A stretch of DNA of 48,003 nt from an uncultured Ruminococcus sp. (lineage in GTDB: Bacteria > Bacillota > Clostridia > UBA1212): the NCBI GenBank assembly GCA_902782645.1, contig CACZNV010000157.1, forward strand, positions 1 to 48,003. The letters are read 5' to 3'. A program made the translations under genes and the position numbers. The first letter of the stretch is position 1, and each line of letters starts with the position of its first letter. This document shows, piece by piece, positions 1 to 36,907 of the stretch. The notes under the pieces are model-generated. The model was not told the DNA's origin. It worked only from the letters and a program-made list of their open reading frames with translations, and searched no databases.

Positions 1-40
1 CCATTGTGTGCTTTTTGAAGCACAGTCGGTAATTATAGGT

Positions 41-84
41 TCTCTTTCGCGACTTGCGTAAAGAGCCCAAAATCTCGATTTTGG
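41..84 (+). repeat. Copy of a repeated leader motif (TCTCT..CGCGACTTGCGTAAAGAGCC.AAAATC) followed by a CCAAAATC/GATTTTGG hairpin abutting the SD
   Basis: About 31 of 34 nt match 30738..30770. The core GCGTAAAGAG.C.AAAATC also occurs at 33153..33188 and 33215..33250 on the other strand. The 8-bp inverted repeat 67..74 / 77..84 ends in the first GG of GGAGGAGG (83..90). Confidence 0.6.
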
Positions 85-94
85 AGGAGGTATT

Positions 95-703
95 ATGGTT
101 TCATGTAAAGATAGCCTTGACCCCAGGGCAATAGATTCGAAGAACAGGATAATTAAAGCGTACACGAAACTGTTGTCGCAAAAAGACAGGGATTCCATTT
201 CAATAAATGAGCTCTGCGAACTCAGCCATATTAACAGAACCACCTTCTACAGGCACTACAAATCCCTTTCGGATATTGAAGCCGACATAGAAAACATCGT
301 TCTGGAAAAAATCAACGAGCTGTTTTTGAAGGCCAATTTTCAGGATTATATGACCGGGAGGGAGCAGTTTCTTGGCGATGTCTATAAGTTGATTACATCC
401 GACATAGAGTTCTACTCAATGATTTTGCTGTCAAATCAAAAGATTGGTTTGCTTGAAAGAATCATTCAGGTTGTCAGGGATAGACTCAGGACGACCATGA
501 CCGCCAAGACTTCCATTTCGCCTGCTCAGATCGATCTGATTCTCACATTTGTCATTGCCGGGAGAATTGCCGTGTACAGGAAATGGATTCTTGACGGTTA
601 TATGCCGCCTGAAGAAGTGGTCTCAGAGACCCTCAGTAAAATATCTGCTTCCGGATTCGATAAGTTCCTGACCGGAAAATGCGATGAGGAAAGTGAGCCC
701 TGA
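95..703 (+). CDS. TetR/AcrR-family transcriptional regulator
   Basis: 202-aa ORF. The N-terminal HTH segment ISINELCELSHINRTTFYRHYKS is typical of TetR_N. GGAGGAGG ends 4 nt upstream of the ATG. Confidence 0.85.
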   Translation: MVSCKDSLDPRAIDSKNRIIKAYTKLLSQKDRDSISINELCELSHINRTTFYRHYKSLSDIEADIENIVLEKINELFLKANFQDYMTGREQFLGDVYKLITSDIEFYSMILLSNQKIGLLERIIQVVRDRLRTTMTAKTSISPAQIDLILTFVIAGRIAVYRKWILDGYMPPEEVVSETLSKISASGFDKFLTGKCDEESEP

Positions 704-30592: not shown

Positions 30593-30612
30593 TCACCAAC
30601 TGACGCTCCAGC
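30593..30612. repeat. 20-bp direct repeat, copy A (TCACCAACTGACGCTCCAGC)
   Basis: Identical to 30772..30791, which is the stop codon plus the last six codons (RWSVSW*) of the downstream oxidoreductase gene. Confidence 0.9.
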
Positions 30613-30771
30613 AATCATGATTTTTGAGCTATTTTTGCGTGCGCGACCCCGAAGATGTATGTATATACTTCGAGAGGGGAGCTCGCGCAAAGCAAGTCGC
30701 GAGCAATCGTCGCAAGACTCCTTGTTCTGTTTAATTTTCTCTCCGCGACTTGCGTAAAGAGCCAAAAATCA
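30613..30771. mobile_element. 159-bp non-coding MITE-like insertion with imperfect terminal inverted repeats and internal hairpins
   Basis: The left end is ATGATTTTTGAGCTATTTTTGCG.... The reverse complement of the right end is TGATTTTTGGCTCTTTACGCAAGTCGCG.... Internal stems are GCTCGCG/CGCGAGC and CCCCGAAG...CTTCG.GGGG. It is flanked by the 20-bp direct repeat. The right end recurs at 41..74. Confidence 0.45.
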
Positions 30772-30791
30772 TCACCAACTGACGCTCCAGC
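30772..30791. repeat. 20-bp direct repeat, copy B (overlaps the 3' end of the oxidoreductase CDS)
   Basis: Identical to 30593..30612. Confidence 0.9.
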
Positions 30792-31956
30792 GTTTGATGT
30801 AGGTGTATTTTTCGGTTTCGGAGGCGGGCGCGTTTTTGCGCTCCGTCTCAGCCGCTTTCTTTTCGTTAAGAAGCCTGTCAAACTCAGCCATATTCTCCTC
30901 CGAAAGCGGGAGGGCAATCTGCTTTCCGGTCCAGGATGAGAGGAAGGCGGCGTTGGTGATTGAGAGTTCTTTTATGCCTTCAACGCCGGGGGCGATGAGA
31001 GGTGTGCCGCTGAGAACAGCTGATGCGAAATCTTCGAGTATAAGCTCGTGGCCATCCCGCGGATTGTCGGATTTATAGACAAATTCATTGGCGGCCGGAG
31101 TGCTTGCGGCACCCTTTTCGGTGAAGCAGAACTCCCGCTCGGGGACCTGCAGCTTTGTGTAGCGGAGCTCGTTTTTCTCAAGAATCAGTCTGCCCCTGTC
31201 GCCTGAGATTTCAAGGCGGTTTGTGCCGGGAGCCTCGCCTGTGGTGGTTATGAACACCGCAGATGCGCCGTTATCGTACTCCGCGTATATTGTGGCGTCG
31301 TCCTCAACGCCAATGTTGTGGTAGAGTCCCTCGCGGCAGAAAGCAGTGACCTTTGAGGGCATGCCGAAGAGCCATTGCCAGATGTCTATGTTGTGCGGAG
31401 CCTGGTTTATGAGGACGCCGCCGCCCTCGCCGTTCCAGGTGGCCCGCCAGCTGCCCGAGTCGTAGTAGCTTTGGGTTCGGTACCAGTTGGTGACTATCCA
31501 GACAAGCCTCTTGGGGATGCCTATGCCGCCCTCTGAAATGATTTCCTTGGCTTTTTGGAACAGAGGGTCTGTGCGCTGGTTGAACATGATTCCGAAAACA
31601 CAGCCGCTTTTTGACGCTGCGCCGTTCATCTTTACAACCTCGGAGACATTTACCCCCGCAGGCTTTTCCGTGAGCACGTGAACGCCGTTTTCAAGGGCCG
31701 AAATCACGTAATGAGGGTGGAAATAGTGGGGAGTTGCCACAATCACGGCATCCGCAAGGCCGCTCCTTATGAGCTCGTCGCCGTCTTCGAATATTTTGAT
31801 TTCCGGGAAATCATTGGCGAGTTTGCGCCTCTTCTCACCGTCAATGTCGCACAGAGCTGCAAGGGTCATGCCCTTGATCCTGCCGTTTTTGATGCATGAG
31901 CAGTGGGCAAAACCTATATTTCCTACGCCGATAATTCCAACCCGAATGCTTTTCAT
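30772..31956 (-). CDS. Gfo/Idh/MocA-family NAD(P)-dependent oxidoreductase
   Basis: 394-aa ORF with the N-terminal IRVGIIGVGNIG Rossmann motif and a family-typical EKP motif (LTEKPAG). Confidence 0.9.
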   Translation of the reverse strand: MKSIRVGIIGVGNIGFAHCSCIKNGRIKGMTLAALCDIDGEKRRKLANDFPEIKIFEDGDELIRSGLADAVIVATPHYFHPHYVISALENGVHVLTEKPAGVNVSEVVKMNGAASKSGCVFGIMFNQRTDPLFQKAKEIISEGGIGIPKRLVWIVTNWYRTQSYYDSGSWRATWNGEGGGVLINQAPHNIDIWQWLFGMPSKVTAFCREGLYHNIGVEDDATIYAEYDNGASAVFITTTGEAPGTNRLEISGDRGRLILEKNELRYTKLQVPEREFCFTEKGAASTPAANEFVYKSDNPRDGHELILEDFASAVLSGTPLIAPGVEGIKELSITNAAFLSSWTGKQIALPLSEENMAEFDRLLNEKKAAETERKNAPASETEKYTYIKRWSVSW

Positions 31957-31968
31957 GTCAAATCCCGA

Positions 31969-33138
31969 TTATTTTCCTGTGTTGTAAGTGCCTGAGAGAT
32001 CCGCAACGGCACCGCCAATGTCTTCCTTGCGCCTTGATGTGGCAACCCTCTTCATAAGCTCGTTGTAGTAAAGGTCAGCGTCGAAAGGAATCTCCACGGT
32101 CTTGCCAAGCCATGCGGAAAGGTGCATTGCGTTGGAGATGGTCAGTCCGTTGATGCCCTCTTCGCCGCCTGCGATGAGCGGTTCGTCCCTGAGAATCGCC
32201 GCCGCAAAAGCGTTGAGAACGCCGGAGTGCTGGGGCGAAAGGCCGTCCGTTTCAACCTCTATAGTTGTGCTCTTGGGCTGGGCGAAGGATACCTTGTTGG
32301 TTCTGCTGAATTCGGGTTCAAACATTTCAAGCTCCGTCATGTAGAGTTTGCCGTTTTCCGCAAGGAGCTTGCCTCCCTCGAGAGTAATCTCAAAGCGGTT
32401 CGTGCCGGGGGCATCGCCCGTTGTGGTTATGAAGCAGCCCGTGGCGCCGTTCTCGTACTCCACAAAAGCGGTGACATCATCTTCAACTTCGATGTCGTGC
32501 CACTTGCCGAAGTACATGTGTGCAGTGACCGTTTTGGGCATGCCGCAGATCCACTGCCAGAGGTCAAGGTTGTGAGGGCACTGGTTGAGCAAAACTCCGC
32601 CGCCCTCGCCGCTCCATGTGGCTCTCCATGCGCCCGAATCGTAATATGCCTGGGGCCTGTACCAGTTGGTGATGATCCAGTTGGTCCTTTTGATCTGACC
32701 GAGTTTGCCGCTCTTTACGATTTCCCGCATTTTACGGTAAACACAGTCGGTTCTCTGGTTGAACATCATGCCGAATTTTGCCTTGCTGGTCTTGGCGAAT
32801 TCGTTCATCTCGGCAACAGCCTTGGTGTAGACGCCGGCAGGTTTTTCACACATGACGTGGATATTTCTCTTGAGGCACTCGATGACATATTTGGGGTGCG
32901 AATAGTGGGGCACGGCAATGATGCAGGCGTCAATCAGCCCGGAGTCAAACATCTCCTCGGCGTTCGTGAAGCAGGCCGGCGCTTCTTTCATGAAGCCCTT
33001 AGCCCAGTCCAGCCTGTCCTGTTTGAGGTCGCAGACCGCCGTCACCCGAATTTCGGGGCAGCGTCCGCCCTCGATATTGGCAATGTGTCCGCTTCCCATG
33101 TTGCCGACACCGAGTATACCCATTCTTACATAATCCAT
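31969..33138 (-). CDS. Gfo/Idh/MocA-family NAD(P)-dependent oxidoreductase (paralogue)
   Basis: I set the start at the ATG at 33138 (MDYVRMGILGVGNMG), preceded by GGAGGAG. It has a CEKPAG motif. The 13-codon upstream extension is made of the repeated leader motif. Confidence 0.9.
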   Translation of the reverse strand: MDYVRMGILGVGNMGSGHIANIEGGRCPEIRVTAVCDLKQDRLDWAKGFMKEAPACFTNAEEMFDSGLIDACIIAVPHYSHPKYVIECLKRNIHVMCEKPAGVYTKAVAEMNEFAKTSKAKFGMMFNQRTDCVYRKMREIVKSGKLGQIKRTNWIITNWYRPQAYYDSGAWRATWSGEGGGVLLNQCPHNLDLWQWICGMPKTVTAHMYFGKWHDIEVEDDVTAFVEYENGATGCFITTTGDAPGTNRFEITLEGGKLLAENGKLYMTELEMFEPEFSRTNKVSFAQPKSTTIEVETDGLSPQHSGVLNAFAAAILRDEPLIAGGEEGINGLTISNAMHLSAWLGKTVEIPFDADLYYNELMKRVATSRRKEDIGGAVADLSGTYNTGK

Positions 33139-33152
33139 ATTCTCCTCCAAAA

Positions 33153-33188
33153 CCGTGATTTTTGACTCTTTACGCATTTTGCCGATAG
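33153..33188. repeat. 36-nt direct repeat, copy 1 (CCGTGATTTTTGACTCTTTACGCATTTTGCCGATAG)
   Basis: Perfectly identical to 33215..33250. It contains the reverse complement of the GCGTAAAGAGTCAAAAATCA leader motif. Confidence 0.95.
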
Positions 33189-33214
33189 TTCAAAAATCAA
33201 GGTTTTGGCTTTCC

Positions 33215-33250
33215 CCGTGATTTTTGACTCTTTACGCATTTTGCCGATAG
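33215..33250. repeat. 36-nt direct repeat, copy 2
   Basis: Perfectly identical to 33153..33188, offset by 62 bp. Confidence 0.95.
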
Positions 33251-33307
33251 AAATCTAAGAGTCTTCGTATTTCAAATGCTTCCGGTATTCCAAGTTCCCT
33301 CAAGTTG

Positions 33308-34066
33308 TCACCTGAGACCCCAGGAACCGAGCCTCTTGAAGCTTCTCTTCAGGCAGTCAAACGGGTTCTCTCCGTAGCAGTCGTCCTGCTCCACAAGAAG
33401 GTACTCCGTGCCCGCATTTTCCGCCTCGTACAGAATCTTTGAAAAATTGATGTTTCCCTCGCCGACAACAGCCATGCGCTGCTGATTATTGACGATAATC
33501 ATGTCCTTGAGGTGGATTGCCGGCACCCTGCCCTTGAGGTTTTTAATCCACTGTGCGGGGTCGCCGCCGCCGAACTGGACCCAGTAAGTGTCGACTGTAA
33601 ATCCCATCTCGTCGGGGGTAAAGATCGCCGCCAGCTTTTCCATGCCCGTGACGCCCTTTTCGTCCTTGGCGAATTCAAACTGGTGGTTGTGGTACATGAA
33701 GTAGAGGCCGCTCTCCGCAATCATTTTTGCTGCGGGCTTGAAGTTTTTCTCAAAAGCATCGTAGTCCGGGCACTGGTGGCCGTTGGGCATTGCGCCGATG
33801 CCCACAAACTTTGAGCCGAATATCTTGTGGTTTTCAATCACCTTGGCGGTGTCGTTTTTGATGGCATCCGGATTTGTGTGGGTGAGAACGCATGTGAGAC
33901 CGTTCTTTTGAAGCTCGTTTTTGAGCCACTCCGCCTCGAAGGGACATGTTCCGCTCACCTGGACGAACTCGTAGCCGATATCCGCCACCTTTTTGAGCGA
34001 CTCCGAAAAGCTGTCCAAATCCCTGCAATACTCTCTCAATGTGTAAAGCTGTGCGCCTACTCTCAT
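33308..34066 (-). CDS. Sugar phosphate isomerase/epimerase (xylose isomerase-like TIM barrel)
   Basis: 252-aa ORF with the family-typical N-terminus VGAQLYTLRE and an internal HLKD motif. Confidence 0.82.
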   Translation of the reverse strand: MRVGAQLYTLREYCRDLDSFSESLKKVADIGYEFVQVSGTCPFEAEWLKNELQKNGLTCVLTHTNPDAIKNDTAKVIENHKIFGSKFVGIGAMPNGHQCPDYDAFEKNFKPAAKMIAESGLYFMYHNHQFEFAKDEKGVTGMEKLAAIFTPDEMGFTVDTYWVQFGGGDPAQWIKNLKGRVPAIHLKDMIIVNNQQRMAVVGEGNINFSKILYEAENAGTEYLLVEQDDCYGENPFDCLKRSFKRLGSWGLR

Positions 34067-34090: not shown

Positions 34091-34924
34091 TTACTGATTT
34101 ATAATCCGCTTAATCGCGGAAACCGCCGCATCAAACGCCTCGTCCGACGTCCTGTATGCGTTTCCTATGCTGCTCTTTTCGCCCGACTGTTCAAGATTCT
34201 CCAGCCCTGCGAAAACCCTCAGATGGGGCTCGACGGTGAGCACGCCCTTTTTGAACACGCCAAGGAGCCTCTCCACGCTGCCGTCGCCGCACCCGGCGGG
34301 TACAATCTCGCCGCTTCCCCGCAAAGCGTCCTTAATGTGCATGTAATCCAAATAAGGCGAAAGCAGGTCCATAGCTTTAACCGTGTCCTCGCCTGCCTGG
34401 ACGAAATTGGCGGGGTCGAAAACCGCCTTGATCTCAGGGAGCGCCTTATGAATTCTCAGACAGTCGGCTGCTTTTTCGCCGAAAATACCCTTCTCGTTTT
34501 CATGGCACAAAACAATACGGGCCGATTTTGCCTCCTCTGAGAATCTTGCGAGCCTGTCGCAGACCTCATCGAATACAGTATCACCCGTGTTGCCGTCAAC
34601 GTAAAAACTGAAAAGCCTTATTCTGCCGCACCCGAGTACGGAACAGAGCTCAAGGCCGTGTCTGAACCTGTCAAGATGGGCCTTGAAATCGTCTTTGATA
34701 TTAATTTTTCCGTAGGGAGAACCCAGCGACCACACGCCAATGCCCTCGCCGTCAAGCTTTTTCCGAACGCTTTTTGCCTTTTCGACGGTGATATCGGCAA
34801 TGTTTACGCCGTCGACGCCTCTTATCTCAAGAAGCCCGACACCGTTTCTCTTCATCGCCTCAATCTGGCCGTCGATCATTGGCGACGCCTCGTCGGCAAA
34901 TGCGCAAAGTCTGTAGTCAGCCAT
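34091..34924 (-). CDS. Sugar phosphate isomerase/epimerase (xylose isomerase-like TIM barrel)
   Basis: About 277 aa from the ATG at 34924 (GGGAG 8 nt upstream). It contains CHENE and HIKD metal-ligand-type motifs. Confidence 0.82.
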   Translation of the reverse strand: MADYRLCAFADEASPMIDGQIEAMKRNGVGLLEIRGVDGVNIADITVEKAKSVRKKLDGEGIGVWSLGSPYGKINIKDDFKAHLDRFRHGLELCSVLGCGRIRLFSFYVDGNTGDTVFDEVCDRLARFSEEAKSARIVLCHENEKGIFGEKAADCLRIHKALPEIKAVFDPANFVQAGEDTVKAMDLLSPYLDYMHIKDALRGSGEIVPAGCGDGSVERLLGVFKKGVLTVEPHLRVFAGLENLEQSGEKSSIGNAYRTSDEAFDAAVSAIKRIINQ

Positions 34925-34945
34925 TTTCAAATCTCCCTGGGGCCG

Positions 34946-35767
34946 TCAGACGCCCGAGTAAGCTGAGAAGCCGCCGTCTATCGGAAGCACCACGCCCGTC
35001 ACAAAAGCTGCCTTCTCATCGTCAATCAGAAACTTCACGGCGCCCACAAGCTCCTCCGGCTCGCCAAAGCGCTTCATCGGCGTGGCGTTTAAGATTTTGT
35101 TTGTCCTTGGCGTCGGGGTGCCGTCCTTGTTGAAAAGGAGGTCCCTGTTCTGGTTTGTGACGAAAAATCCGGGGGCAATGGCGTTGACCCTGATGCCCGC
35201 TCCGGCAAAGTGAACCGCCAGCCACTGGGTGAGGTTGGAAACGCCGGCCTTGGCGCTGCTGTAGGCGGGAATCTTTGTGAGGGGCCTGTAGGCGTTCATG
35301 GACGAAATGTTGAGGATCGAGCCGCCGGTTTTTACCATATCCTTGGCGAATACCTGGGTCGGTATCATGACGCCAACGATATTGAGGTCAAACACAAAGT
35401 TGAAGTCCTTCTTGTCAAGGTTGAAGAACGTTTTGAAGTCGTCTGCTTCCTCGTCGCCGTCGGCATATGTCTCGTTTTTGGTGGTGCAGCGGGGGTTGTT
35501 GCCTCCGGCTCCGTTTATAAGAACGCTGCAGGGTCCCAAGTCCTTAAGGACCTCCTCCCTGACAGCTTCCAGCATATCCCGGTCAAGCACGTTGGCCTTG
35601 TAAGCCTTGGCGGTGCCTCCGTCTTTACATATCTCATCGGCAACGAGTTTAGCCGCATCATAGTTGAGGTCAAGAAGAGCGACGGAAAATCCGTCTTTTG
35701 CAAGTTCTTTCGCAAAGCAGGAGCAAAGGACTCCGCCGGCGCCGGTTATTACCGCAGTTTTAGCCAT
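34946..35767 (-). CDS. SDR-family oxidoreductase, probably a mannonate/fructuronate oxidoreductase (B. subtilis YjmF/UxuB type)
   Basis: 273-aa ORF with TGAGGVLC Rossmann and YSSAK catalytic motifs. It lies immediately downstream of uxuA, as in the yjmE-yjmF arrangement. Confidence 0.7.
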   Translation of the reverse strand: MAKTAVITGAGGVLCSCFAKELAKDGFSVALLDLNYDAAKLVADEICKDGGTAKAYKANVLDRDMLEAVREEVLKDLGPCSVLINGAGGNNPRCTTKNETYADGDEEADDFKTFFNLDKKDFNFVFDLNIVGVMIPTQVFAKDMVKTGGSILNISSMNAYRPLTKIPAYSSAKAGVSNLTQWLAVHFAGAGIRVNAIAPGFFVTNQNRDLLFNKDGTPTPRTNKILNATPMKRFGEPEELVGAVKFLIDDEKAAFVTGVVLPIDGGFSAYSGV

Positions 35768-35803: not shown

Positions 35804-36847
35804 TCACCGTTTCAGTGTTTTTTCAATTCCCTCAAAAAGGCCCGTCAGGTATGTGGCTCCGAGGGCTCTGTCGTAGAGACCGTAGCCGCCCTTGCCTGTT
35901 TCGCCCCATATCATGCGGCCGTGATCAGGCCTTACATAGCCGTCAAAACCGCCCTCAAGAAGGCCCTTCACAATCCCATACATATCAAGGGACCCTTCGT
36001 CGGTGGGATGGGCCACCTCGTGGAATTCCCTGTACCCCGTGATCTTAATGTTGCGCAGGTGCGCGAAATGAATCCTCTTGGCGAATTTCTTTGCCATTTT
36101 AGGAAGATCGTTGTCCGTGGAGGCGCCAAGGGATCCCGTGCAGAACGTGAGCCCGTTCTCGGGCATGTCCACAAGCTTCAGAAACCGTTCAATGTTTTTC
36201 TCATTGGTTATGATTCTGGGAAGTCCGAAAATGCCCCATGGCGGATCGTCGGGATGTATGGCCATGTTCACGCCTGCCTCATGGGCTGCAGGTATGACCG
36301 CCTTAAGGAAGCGCTCCATGTTTTTCCAAAGGCCCTCCTCGCCAATGACCGCATACCGCCCCATCAGCTCCTTGAGTTCCTTCTTCGTATAGCTCTCATC
36401 CCAGCCCGGCAGGCTGAACTCACCGTTTAACGGGTCAAGCTTCGCCAATTCCTTTTCGTCATATGACAAGCCGTTTGCACCTTCCGGCAGCTCGTTTTTA
36501 AGGTTAGTCCTGAACCAGTCAAACACGGGCATAAAGTTGTAGCAAATGCAGTCGACGCCTGCGGCGCCGAGCCTCCGCACGTTCTCGCAGTAGACCCCTA
36601 TCAGTTCATCTGCGGAGGCTCCCCCGAGCTTGATTTCCTCAGGCACCGGAACGCTCTCGACCACAGTGAAATCAAGCCCGGCTGCATTTGCGCTTTTCTT
36701 GATCCGGTCGATGCTCTCAACGCTCCAGAGCTTGCCCGGAGCAACGTCATAGACAGCAGAAACAATACCCGTCATGCCCGGAATCTGTCTGATCTGATCG
36801 AGCGTGACCTTGTCGTTTTCGCCGTACCAGCGGAATGTCATTTTCAT
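35804..36847 (-). CDS. uxuA: Mannonate dehydratase
   Basis: From the ATG at 36847, the N-terminus MKMTFRWYGENDKVTLDQIRQIPGMTGIVSA is the hallmark UxuA N-terminus. GGAGG lies 9 nt upstream. Confidence 0.92.
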   Translation of the reverse strand: MKMTFRWYGENDKVTLDQIRQIPGMTGIVSAVYDVAPGKLWSVESIDRIKKSANAAGLDFTVVESVPVPEEIKLGGASADELIGVYCENVRRLGAAGVDCICYNFMPVFDWFRTNLKNELPEGANGLSYDEKELAKLDPLNGEFSLPGWDESYTKKELKELMGRYAVIGEEGLWKNMERFLKAVIPAAHEAGVNMAIHPDDPPWGIFGLPRIITNEKNIERFLKLVDMPENGLTFCTGSLGASTDNDLPKMAKKFAKRIHFAHLRNIKITGYREFHEVAHPTDEGSLDMYGIVKGLLEGGFDGYVRPDHGRMIWGETGKGGYGLYDRALGATYLTGLFEGIEKTLKR

Positions 36848-36907
36848 TGGGAACTGCCTCCGATCCTTTGAAAAAAGTTCGAAAAAGAGTTTTCGCTCCA
36901 TCGTGTA

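Follow-up and report, generated by a model that had tools for sequence, protein, structure and literature searches.

In the 48,003-nucleotide (nt) contig CACZNV010000157.1 of an uncultured Ruminococcus sp., here called the window, one intergenic segment of a six-gene operon carries two identical copies of a 36-nt motif, and the second copy lies close to the Shine-Dalgarno (SD) sequence of a gene for a Gfo/Idh/MocA oxidoreductase. Most probably, this segment (33139-33252) consists of end modules of a palindromic, non-coding repeat that is dispersed through the genomes of one genus; it would fold constitutively and represent recent, species-specific debris of that repeat. A switch operated by a ligand or a protein would have no part in this picture. 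The window is contig C157 of a 2.15-Mb metagenome-assembled genome (MAG; G000) made up of 180 contigs. The operon lies on the minus strand and comprises UxuA, a short-chain dehydrogenase/reductase (SDR), two xylose-isomerase-like TIM barrels and two Gfo/Idh/MocA oxidoreductases. Its intergenic gaps measure 12-36 nt, with the sole exception of the 169-nt gap at 33139-33307, in which the repeated motif is found.

The duplicated motif and its fold

The 36-mer, CCGTGATTTTTGACTCTTTACGCATTTTGCCGATAG, is present in the window as exactly two perfect copies, 33153-33188 and 33215-33250, whose starts are 62 nt apart; two matches were obtained in none of 100 dinucleotide-preserving shuffles. The initial annotation had described a perfect tandem duplication. 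The perfect repeat stands, but its tandem character does not, as the geometry, at 1.6 units, is that of directly repeated copies with 26 nt between them, for which Tandem Repeats Finder calls no array. A simple 62-nt tandem duplication is likewise ruled out, since the repetition is confined to 36 of the 62 nt, with no relation between the sequences beyond the copies. On the mRNA strand the layout is ...CTAT-CGGCAAAAT-[GCGTAAAGAGTCAAAAATCA]-CGGGGAAAGCCAAAACCT-[TGATTTTTGAACTAT]-CGGCAAAAT-[GCGTAAAGAGTCAAAAATCA]-CGGTTTTGGAGGAG-AAT-ATG. In terms of the modules of the repeat family described below, whose left and right ends are called L and R, this corresponds to an R-end, 20 nt, an L-like tip, a second R-end, TTTTGGAGGAG and ATG. 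Within the spacer, CCAAAACCTTGATTTTTGAA repeats the R-end tip and its flank in inverted form. The L-like tip is thus an inverted R-end tip with the flank CGGTTTTGG, a form like that of the extended ends (CAAAACGCTGATTTTTGA) at contigs C76, C101, C103 and C129.

A false duplication of the segment could be suspected in a MAG as fragmented as this one, in which the repeat family itself breaks contigs. Nevertheless, the identical 169-nt gap is found in a separate and independent ENA assembly (ERZ1024259 scaffold_161, 101 kb). In a third assembly, from run ERR3224570, a Logan contig begins precisely 30 nt ahead of the repeat end. Logan contigs are built with k=31, and a break at k-1 is what a repeat-induced branch would be expected to give if the 36-mer is present twice. 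On the strength of these two independent assemblies, an assembly artefact was rejected, and its probability can be taken as negligible. An exact 23-mer search of metagenome contigs gave no match.

As the initial annotation had proposed, the central segment can pair with either copy. With the SD-proximal one it forms an inverted repeat of 19 nt (33147-33165 and 33190-33208) that is complementary at 18 of 19 positions (95%), and the first GG of the GGAGGAG SD sequence (33147-33148) lies inside the 3′ arm. The alternative pairing with the upstream copy (33190-33202 and 33215-33227) extends over 13 nt, 12 of which (92%) are complementary. The SD-proximal hairpin has a folding energy of -24.9 kcal/mol (z -5.5), the alternative hairpin one of -12.9 kcal/mol (z -2.5). 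Pairing probabilities for the ensemble were computed on a 223-nt transcript, in which the SD-proximal hairpin is occupied in >99% of the ensemble. The unpaired probability is 0.00-0.01 for the first two G of the SD and 0.86-0.98 for its other five bases. Opening the SD costs 4.6 kcal/mol, versus 1.0 kcal/mol in the closest species (G001, see below), and opening the region from -18 to +13 costs 11.3 versus 7.7 kcal/mol. In G001, the leader has no more structure than shuffled sequence (z +0.43). Given the 12 kcal/mol difference between the two hairpins and the >99% occupancy of one of them, the leader does not constitute a balanced switch. In the model of the weak hairpin, CCAAAACC is exposed in the loop, where it could readily serve as the toehold from which the RNA refolds into the strong hairpin.

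Other marks of a regulatory leader were also sought. A cmscan search of 32500-34000 against Rfam with permissive filters returned matches at chance level, the best being to a plant miRNA (21 bits, versus a gathering score of 117). In general, the features that would define a cis-regulatory RNA, namely a match to an Rfam model, a conserved covarying leader structure and alternative folds of comparable stability, are absent here. Within the 33139-33307 gap, neither an intrinsic terminator nor a match to a sense-strand promoter was found. An internal promoter for the oxidoreductase gene is ruled out in that there is no sense-strand match, the single kind of match being weak and antisense. This sigma-70-like match, TTGACT-16-GATAGT (9/12), lies in each repeat copy, at 33162-33189 on the plus strand and 62 nt further; if active, it would send transcription into the 3′ end of the TIM-barrel gene.

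The motif also affects how the oxidoreductase gene is annotated. Its start in the open reading frame (ORF) track had been interpreted as the motif read as protein, and the orthologues bear this out. The longer start, MRKESKITVLEEN (ATG at 33177), is the repeat translated in frame, while the ATG equivalent to that of MDY (33138; MDYVRMGILGVGN) is the start in all orthologues, and an independent gene call gives a protein of 389 amino acids (aa). The gene should be annotated from ATG 33138, without the present 13-residue extension.

A dispersed family of palindromic repeats

Sequences related to the motif are found throughout the genome. A BLAST search with the gap gave 22 matches elsewhere, many of them about 50 nt from contig ends, and CCAAAACCGTGATTTTTGA, searched for with a tolerance of at most 4 mismatches, matched at 81 places. 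With a canonical copy as the seed, iteration of an nhmmer profile yielded 142 matches, which fall into 76 clusters and amount to 14.2 kb or 0.66% of the assembly. As 30 of the 76 clusters lie within 60 nt of a contig end, the repeat family is a major cause of fragmentation in this assembly and in that of G001, and its true copy number is under-counted. The full unit measures about 151 or 174 nt (range 151-176 nt) and has no ORF. Its left end is GATTTTTGAGCTATTTTTGCGTGCGCGACCCCGA and its right end ...GCGACTTGCGTAAAGAGCCAAAAATC. The terminal inverted repeats, L = GATTTTTGAGCTATTTTTGCG... and R = ...GCGTAAAGAGCCAAAAATC, pair over 11 positions in 97.6% of cells.

An alignment of 27 distinct full-length copies has a four-helix consensus with 41 pairs, in which 99.0% of cells are paired. 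Compensatory double changes are observed at 21 of these pairs; none of 500 shuffles reaches such values, and slid controls give 1-5 pairs of this kind. One T.G pair is fixed on the L-to-R strand, where G.T exceeds A.C by 38:8, or by 13:7 when the fixed pair is left aside. The R-end core, TTGCGTAAAGAG, is nearly invariant in the 27 copies, and most of the conserved positions are base-paired within the structure of the element itself. Units may also be joined head to tail with a 2-nt junction (31 such junctions), so that the R-end of one unit and the L-end of the next form a hairpin. In addition, there are mini-units of 44 nt that contain only L and R, for instance in a 3 x 46-nt array at C102 and in a related pair at C129.

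The two 36-mers belong to this family. Both score as R-ends of the GAGTC/GAACT sub-type, and their inner segment, GGCAAAATGCG, is a variant of the fourth helix of the family that recurs at C10, C149, C138 and C167. Thus, the claim that the structure was built from a repeated element holds, the elements being end modules of the family. Two further members are found in the window (Table 1). The full-length one is flanked by a 20-bp direct repeat, TCACCAACTGACGCTCCAGC (30593-30612 and 30772-30791), one of whose copies covers the final residues and stop codon of the second oxidoreductase, and synteny with G001 breaks at this copy (30613-30771). Among 44 end pairs that are 30-400 nt apart, this 20-bp repeat (30593/30772) is the only genuine flanking direct repeat of at least 10 nt; the other pairs examined show matches of 3-9 nt at inconsistent offsets, and no target duplication of fixed length was found in the set. 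A 30-nt direct-repeat entry for C136 is an indexing artefact at the contig start and was discounted. The 20-bp repeat, along with the 36-nt repeat around its 26-nt insert (33153-33250), hints at unusually long flanking duplications.

Table 1. Positions in the window of the operon genes, the parts of the duplicated segment and the other members of the repeat family
Feature	Position	Strand	Remarks
UxuA	35804-36901	-	operon member
SDR	34946-35767	-	operon member
Xylose-isomerase-like TIM barrel, first	34091-34930	-	operon member
Xylose-isomerase-like TIM-barrel gene upstream of the repeat	33308-34066	-	stop codon 169 nt before the next start codon
Upstream 36-nt copy	33215-33250	-	R-end module GCGTAAAGAGTCAAAAATCA, inner segment CTATCGGCAAAAT and 3 flanking nt
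Weaker alternative hairpin	33190-33227	-	upstream R-end tip with central arm, 13 nt, 92%
26-nt spacer	33189-33214	-	holds CCAAAACCTTGATTTTTGAA, an L-end-like tip, and forms the 5′ arm of the strong hairpin
Strong hairpin	33147-33208	-	arms 33190-33208 and 33147-33165 (18/19), 24-nt loop
Downstream, SD-proximal 36-nt copy	33153-33188	-	last 26 nt common to the closest species
Shine-Dalgarno GGAGGAG	33142-33148	-	reverse complement of the plus-strand letters
True ATG start of the Gfo/Idh/MocA oxidoreductase (MDYVRMGILGVGN)	33136-33138	-	
Gfo/Idh/MocA oxidoreductase gene downstream of the repeat	31969-33138	-	
Second Gfo/Idh/MocA oxidoreductase	30772-31956	-	operon member
Full-length family member	30613-30771, 152-nt core 30619-30770	+	abuts the stop codon of the second oxidoreductase
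Partial family member at contig start	2-86	+	R-end plus TCGATTTTGGAGGAGG; abuts the start of a TetR-family gene

The family has a narrow distribution. It is present in all eight genomes of the genus that were searched (this genome and seven other species), and 33 genomes of other genera contain a single match, in G035, which belongs to another family. In a database search, the exact 25-mer of the L-end was found only in rumen MAGs, labelled as Mageeibacillus sp. UBA1212 and UBA1243, Clostridia bacterium RGIG10301 and RGIG10101 (yak rumen) and 'Ruminococcus' RUG13779. Collections of phages and plasmids contain no match to the repeat, and an origin from either was rejected on this ground. Four other family loci had no Rfam match at E<=1, and a literature search on the repeat family or the genus yielded nothing specific. 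With regard to gene context, none of 42 clusters lies between divergent genes, versus 13.6% of gaps (p=0.005) and 22% of intergenic bases (p=4.5e-5), and 13 clusters lie between convergent genes. Where the flanking genes run in one direction, the L-to-R strand opposes them in 22 cases versus 7 (p=0.008). In one study, the same bias of gene context in BOX, RUP and SPRITE elements is read as that of a tolerated, parasitic insertion (PMC3049150).

The Y1 transposase domain (RAYT/IS200-type, PF01797) was detected in none of the eight genomes of the genus at E<=0.001, with a control that was positive in 6 of 14 reference genomes. No transposase is flanked by family ends in this assembly. The sole pair of inward-facing ends 400-8000 nt apart (C138:948-1700) encloses a 174-aa ORF without a Pfam match. 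An autonomous insertion sequence (IS) with the same ends was not found in this fragmented assembly, and such a partner could be unassembled because the assembly breaks at 30 repeat clusters.

The family combines features of several known classes. [quoted passage not shown] As in REP/REPIN elements, the copies are extragenic, numerous, palindromic and excluded from promoter-only regions; a REP/RAYT system, in contrast, is rejected because its defining Y1 transposase is missing from the eight genomes. As in BOX-type repeats, there are end modules plus an internally amplified sub-module of variable copy number. The family is, in effect, a structured MITE/REPIN/BOX-like repeat that fails the test for REP-RAYT and shares with MITEs only the inverted repeats. 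It looks like an undescribed structured repeat of rumen 'Mageeibacillus'-like Clostridia, although small structured dispersed repeats are, as a broader kind, already known. The locus itself is ordinary, and the family behind it is the more interesting lead. Since it occupies 0.66% of the assembly, marks 30 contig ends, has no Rfam entry, shows covariation and lacks a recognisable mobilising enzyme, the family merits a description of its own.

Orthologous leaders and rival readings

Leaders were collected from 15 relatives in which the same TIM-barrel gene precedes the oxidoreductase orthologue. The closest species, Mageeibacillus sp. UBA1243 (G001), is 88% identical at the nucleotide level in the oxidoreductase gene. 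Its gap of 81 nt contains one R-end, as opposed to two in G000, and has neither the complementary arm nor the duplication. The gaps of G006, G002 and G005 (60, 39 and 25 nt) contain no repeat at all. Those of G004, G003, G007 and G037 (L014, L015, L017 and L020) measure 134-388 nt and contain unrelated tandem repeats, in arrays of the CCGGAAAATA and CAAACAGGCAAAAACAG types. In two genomes (L018 and L021) the gap is about 500 nt long and includes an extra ORF of about 150 aa, and of two further relatives one has a 13-nt gap and the other overlapping genes. The two-copy architecture is absent from every orthologous leader examined among the 15 relatives, with one copy in the nearest species only; according to this survey, it is specific to one species. 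The gap between the TIM-barrel and oxidoreductase genes appears, across species, as a recurrent spot for landing or expansion.

These leaders show that an ancestor shared with the closest species already had one R-end fused to the SD, and that the G000 lineage gained 62 nt, in which the R-end is present a second time and its tip, along with the flank, in inverted form. This gain is probably recent, because the copies are identical at 36 of 36 positions. The mechanism may have been a local duplicative event at a palindrome-rich site, whether by slippage of replication, by a template switch at the palindrome or by a mini-unit that inserted with a long flanking duplication. Hairpins would be the ordinary outcome of terminal inverted repeats that are transcribed inside an operon. 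According to the folding results, the -24.9 kcal/mol hairpin is predicted to be formed essentially always and to pair the first two G of the SD, and the net effect would be a constitutive, moderate drop in translation initiation of the oxidoreductase. The duplex of 20-22 bp might also serve as a substrate for RNase III or as a barrier to exonucleases.

The comparison with G001 extends to other sites. G000 has an extra 155-nt unit at an orthologous site. In terms of identity, one site has an element at about 97% and its coding flank at 88% (by eye), a second site has an element at 89% and flanks at 84-92%, and at a third the element is inverted in place. As to whether the element evolves more slowly than coding flanks, the sites disagree (about 97% versus 88%; 89% versus 84-92%) and lie in a mosaic background. 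Identity between the two genomes ranges from 77 to 100%, reaching 98% near the TetR gene and 100% along 600 nt at C2:16500-17100, versus 77-88% elsewhere; the comparisons include window 1-700 versus L037 and L042 versus L060. This mosaic divergence suggests recent exchange between the species. A family element occupies the same intergenic site in opposite orientation in the two genomes (G000:C171:6865-7083 and G001:C10:34201-34407; L040/L050), suggesting either that it was inverted across the terminal repeats or that insertions took place independently at a preferred site.

Some observations weigh against regarding the segment as debris. A 35-nt sequence, AATGCGTAAAGAGTCAAAAATCACGGTTTTGGAGG, is identical at 35 of 35 positions in G000 and G001, while the flanking genes are 88% and 86% identical and third codon positions 68%; the remainder of the gap cannot be aligned. 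The exact AATGCGTAAAGAGTCAAAAATCACGGTTTTGGAGG variant is found at no other locus in either genome, which makes it hard to invoke gene conversion from another assembled copy. Judged from the sequences, this identity fits purifying selection on the junction between R-end and SD better than it fits pure junk, although it may reflect either such selection or chance in the mosaic background. In addition, the strong covariation in the full-length family indicates that the elements are not structure-free DNA. Finally, the TetR-type gene next to the partial member (2-86) has the same R-end/TTTTGGAGGAG/ATG junction as the oxidoreductase (33138), and its occurrence at two genes could hint at a recurrent functional module. 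Only 4 R-ends, however, lie within 25 nt of a start codon, and TTTTGGAGGAG is common only to the two in this window; on these counts, the notion that the element regularly supplies an SD was rejected.

Part of this evidence would suit a hairpin that was born from the repeat but is now kept as a constitutive cis-element, which would fix how much the two operon halves are expressed relative to each other; it might lessen translation initiation, be processed by RNase III or shield the upstream mRNA from 3′ exonucleases. A strong hairpin predominates, shares 2 nt with the SD and sits within an operon without a terminator, and the R-end/SD junction is unchanged relative to the closest species despite 12-14% divergence in the flanking genes. 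There are precedents as well, since transcribed Correia elements are RNase III targets (PMC2649163) and REP/ERIC repeats change mRNA fate (PMC3049150). Nevertheless, the 62-nt addition that forms the hairpin is present in one species only, and its 36/36 identity implies an age at which selection could not yet be seen. By itself, the conserved part, a single R-end, has no significant structure, and sister species run the same operon with repeat-free gaps of 25-60 nt. Exaptation of this kind is therefore improbable, if worth keeping in mind. A similarly low probability may be given to a broader proposal, in which the family is a new, genus-wide class of structured nucleic acid that acts as RNA or single-stranded DNA, and R-end/TTTTGGAGGAG an exapted initiation module tuned by the second copy. 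It may take two forms, that of a REPIN-like self-propagating element with an unseen mobiliser or that of an element used by the host at the 3′ ends of genes and between cistrons; what is cited for it are the four helices, the 21 covarying pairs, the fixed T.G wobble, the orientation bias and the failure to find a Y1 transposase or a matching IS.

The initial annotation had favoured a riboregulator or attenuator of the oxidoreductase with a sequestor and an anti-sequestor, toggled by a ligand, a protein or the position of the ribosome. On paper, the two pairings of the central arm are indeed mutually exclusive, the upstream one would form first during transcription and the stronger one contacts the SD. 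However, the imbalance of 12 kcal/mol keeps the sequestor occupied almost permanently, only two of the seven SD bases are sequestered, and the exposed CCAAAACC would favour passage to the strong hairpin. There is neither an aptamer-like conserved core nor an Rfam match, terminator or sense promoter, and the same motif adjoins unrelated genes across the genome. The structure prediction that had been suggested as a check gives a single dominant hairpin in G000 and nothing beyond shuffles in G001. It had also been held that orthologous operons without the duplication, if regulated alike, would speak against the proposal; as to the first half of this, such operons do exist, with one copy (81 nt) or none (60, 39 and 25 nt). 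A riboregulator is thus very unlikely, and nothing calls for an RNA switch that responds to sugar acids in this operon. An operator specific to this operon for a sugar-acid regulator was rejected as well, as the motif is genome-wide and lies beside unrelated genes. Hardly more credible, and if anything slightly less so, is the idea that the R-end is a site for a genome-wide DNA- or RNA-binding factor, with the two copies forming a double site close to where the gene starts. Some enterobacterial repeats do carry sites for IHF or gyrase, and a factor site would agree with the nearly invariant core, with its conservation across species at this locus, with the avoidance of promoter-only regions and with the 22:7 orientation bias. 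By contrast, no candidate factor was identified, the invariance could be due just as well to recent spread or to what the mobilising machinery requires, and most of the conserved positions are paired in the structure of the element.

With the segment regarded as recent debris of the repeat, the locus acquires a more general meaning. An abundant palindromic repeat can create hairpins that touch an SD inside operons within the lifetime of one species. Such repeat-born hairpins are raw material for regulatory change and, at the same time, a trap for the prediction of riboregulators from motifs.

Comparison with known systems

Translational riboswitches and leader attenuators that sequester the SD resemble this leader in that the ribosome-binding site is overlapped by a hairpin with which an upstream pairing competes. 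They differ in having a conserved ligand core, conservation of the leader and an Rfam match, none of which is observed here, where the two folds are unbalanced by 12 kcal/mol and the sequence is a genome-wide repeat.

The Correia elements (CREE/NEMIS) of Neisseria are closer in anatomy, being elements of 100-160 nt with terminal inverted repeats that are often co-transcribed with their neighbors and form a long duplex in mRNA (PMC2649163). According to the same source, the duplex is bound or cut by RNase III in Neisseria, which changes the expression of adjacent genes; in the present case, RNase III cutting would be a prediction. The IHF site and end-borne promoters described there (PMC2649163) were not seen in this family, which has only the weak antisense promoter-like match, and the host phylum is unrelated. 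A further difference concerns integration, as no consistent target duplication was found here. The target duplication of Correia elements is TA, and this was not seen.

REP, BIME and REPIN elements of Enterobacteria and Pseudomonas are also extragenic, palindromic and present in high copy number, as singletons, inverted pairs and clusters (PMC3116915, PMC3337134). As in this family, they avoid promoters and sit after stop codons and inside operons, and they are vertically inherited and lineage-specific, with compensatory changes that keep the hairpin (PMC3116915, PMC3337134). Unlike in REP-RAYT systems, the eight genomes of the genus have no Y1 transposase, and the units are of 151-174 nt with four helices versus REPs of 20-40 nt. 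REP repeats can stabilise mRNA.

The BOX elements of Streptococcus pneumoniae and relatives (boxA-boxB(n)-boxC) are alike only in the way they work, as the Firmicute lineages are unrelated. Unlike BOX, this family has no known IS bearing matching ends, its amplified unit is the terminal inverted repeats themselves, and its full unit contains four covarying helices. On the other hand, both are small, non-coding, modular intergenic repeats of Firmicute genomes of about 2 Mb, and in both, end modules enclose sub-modules whose tandem copy number varies between strains or species (PMC3049150 for BOX). For BOX, that study reports stable stem-loops upon transcription, an excess between convergent genes and effects on neighboring genes that depend on orientation (PMC3049150), and the present family is likened to BOX in these respects.

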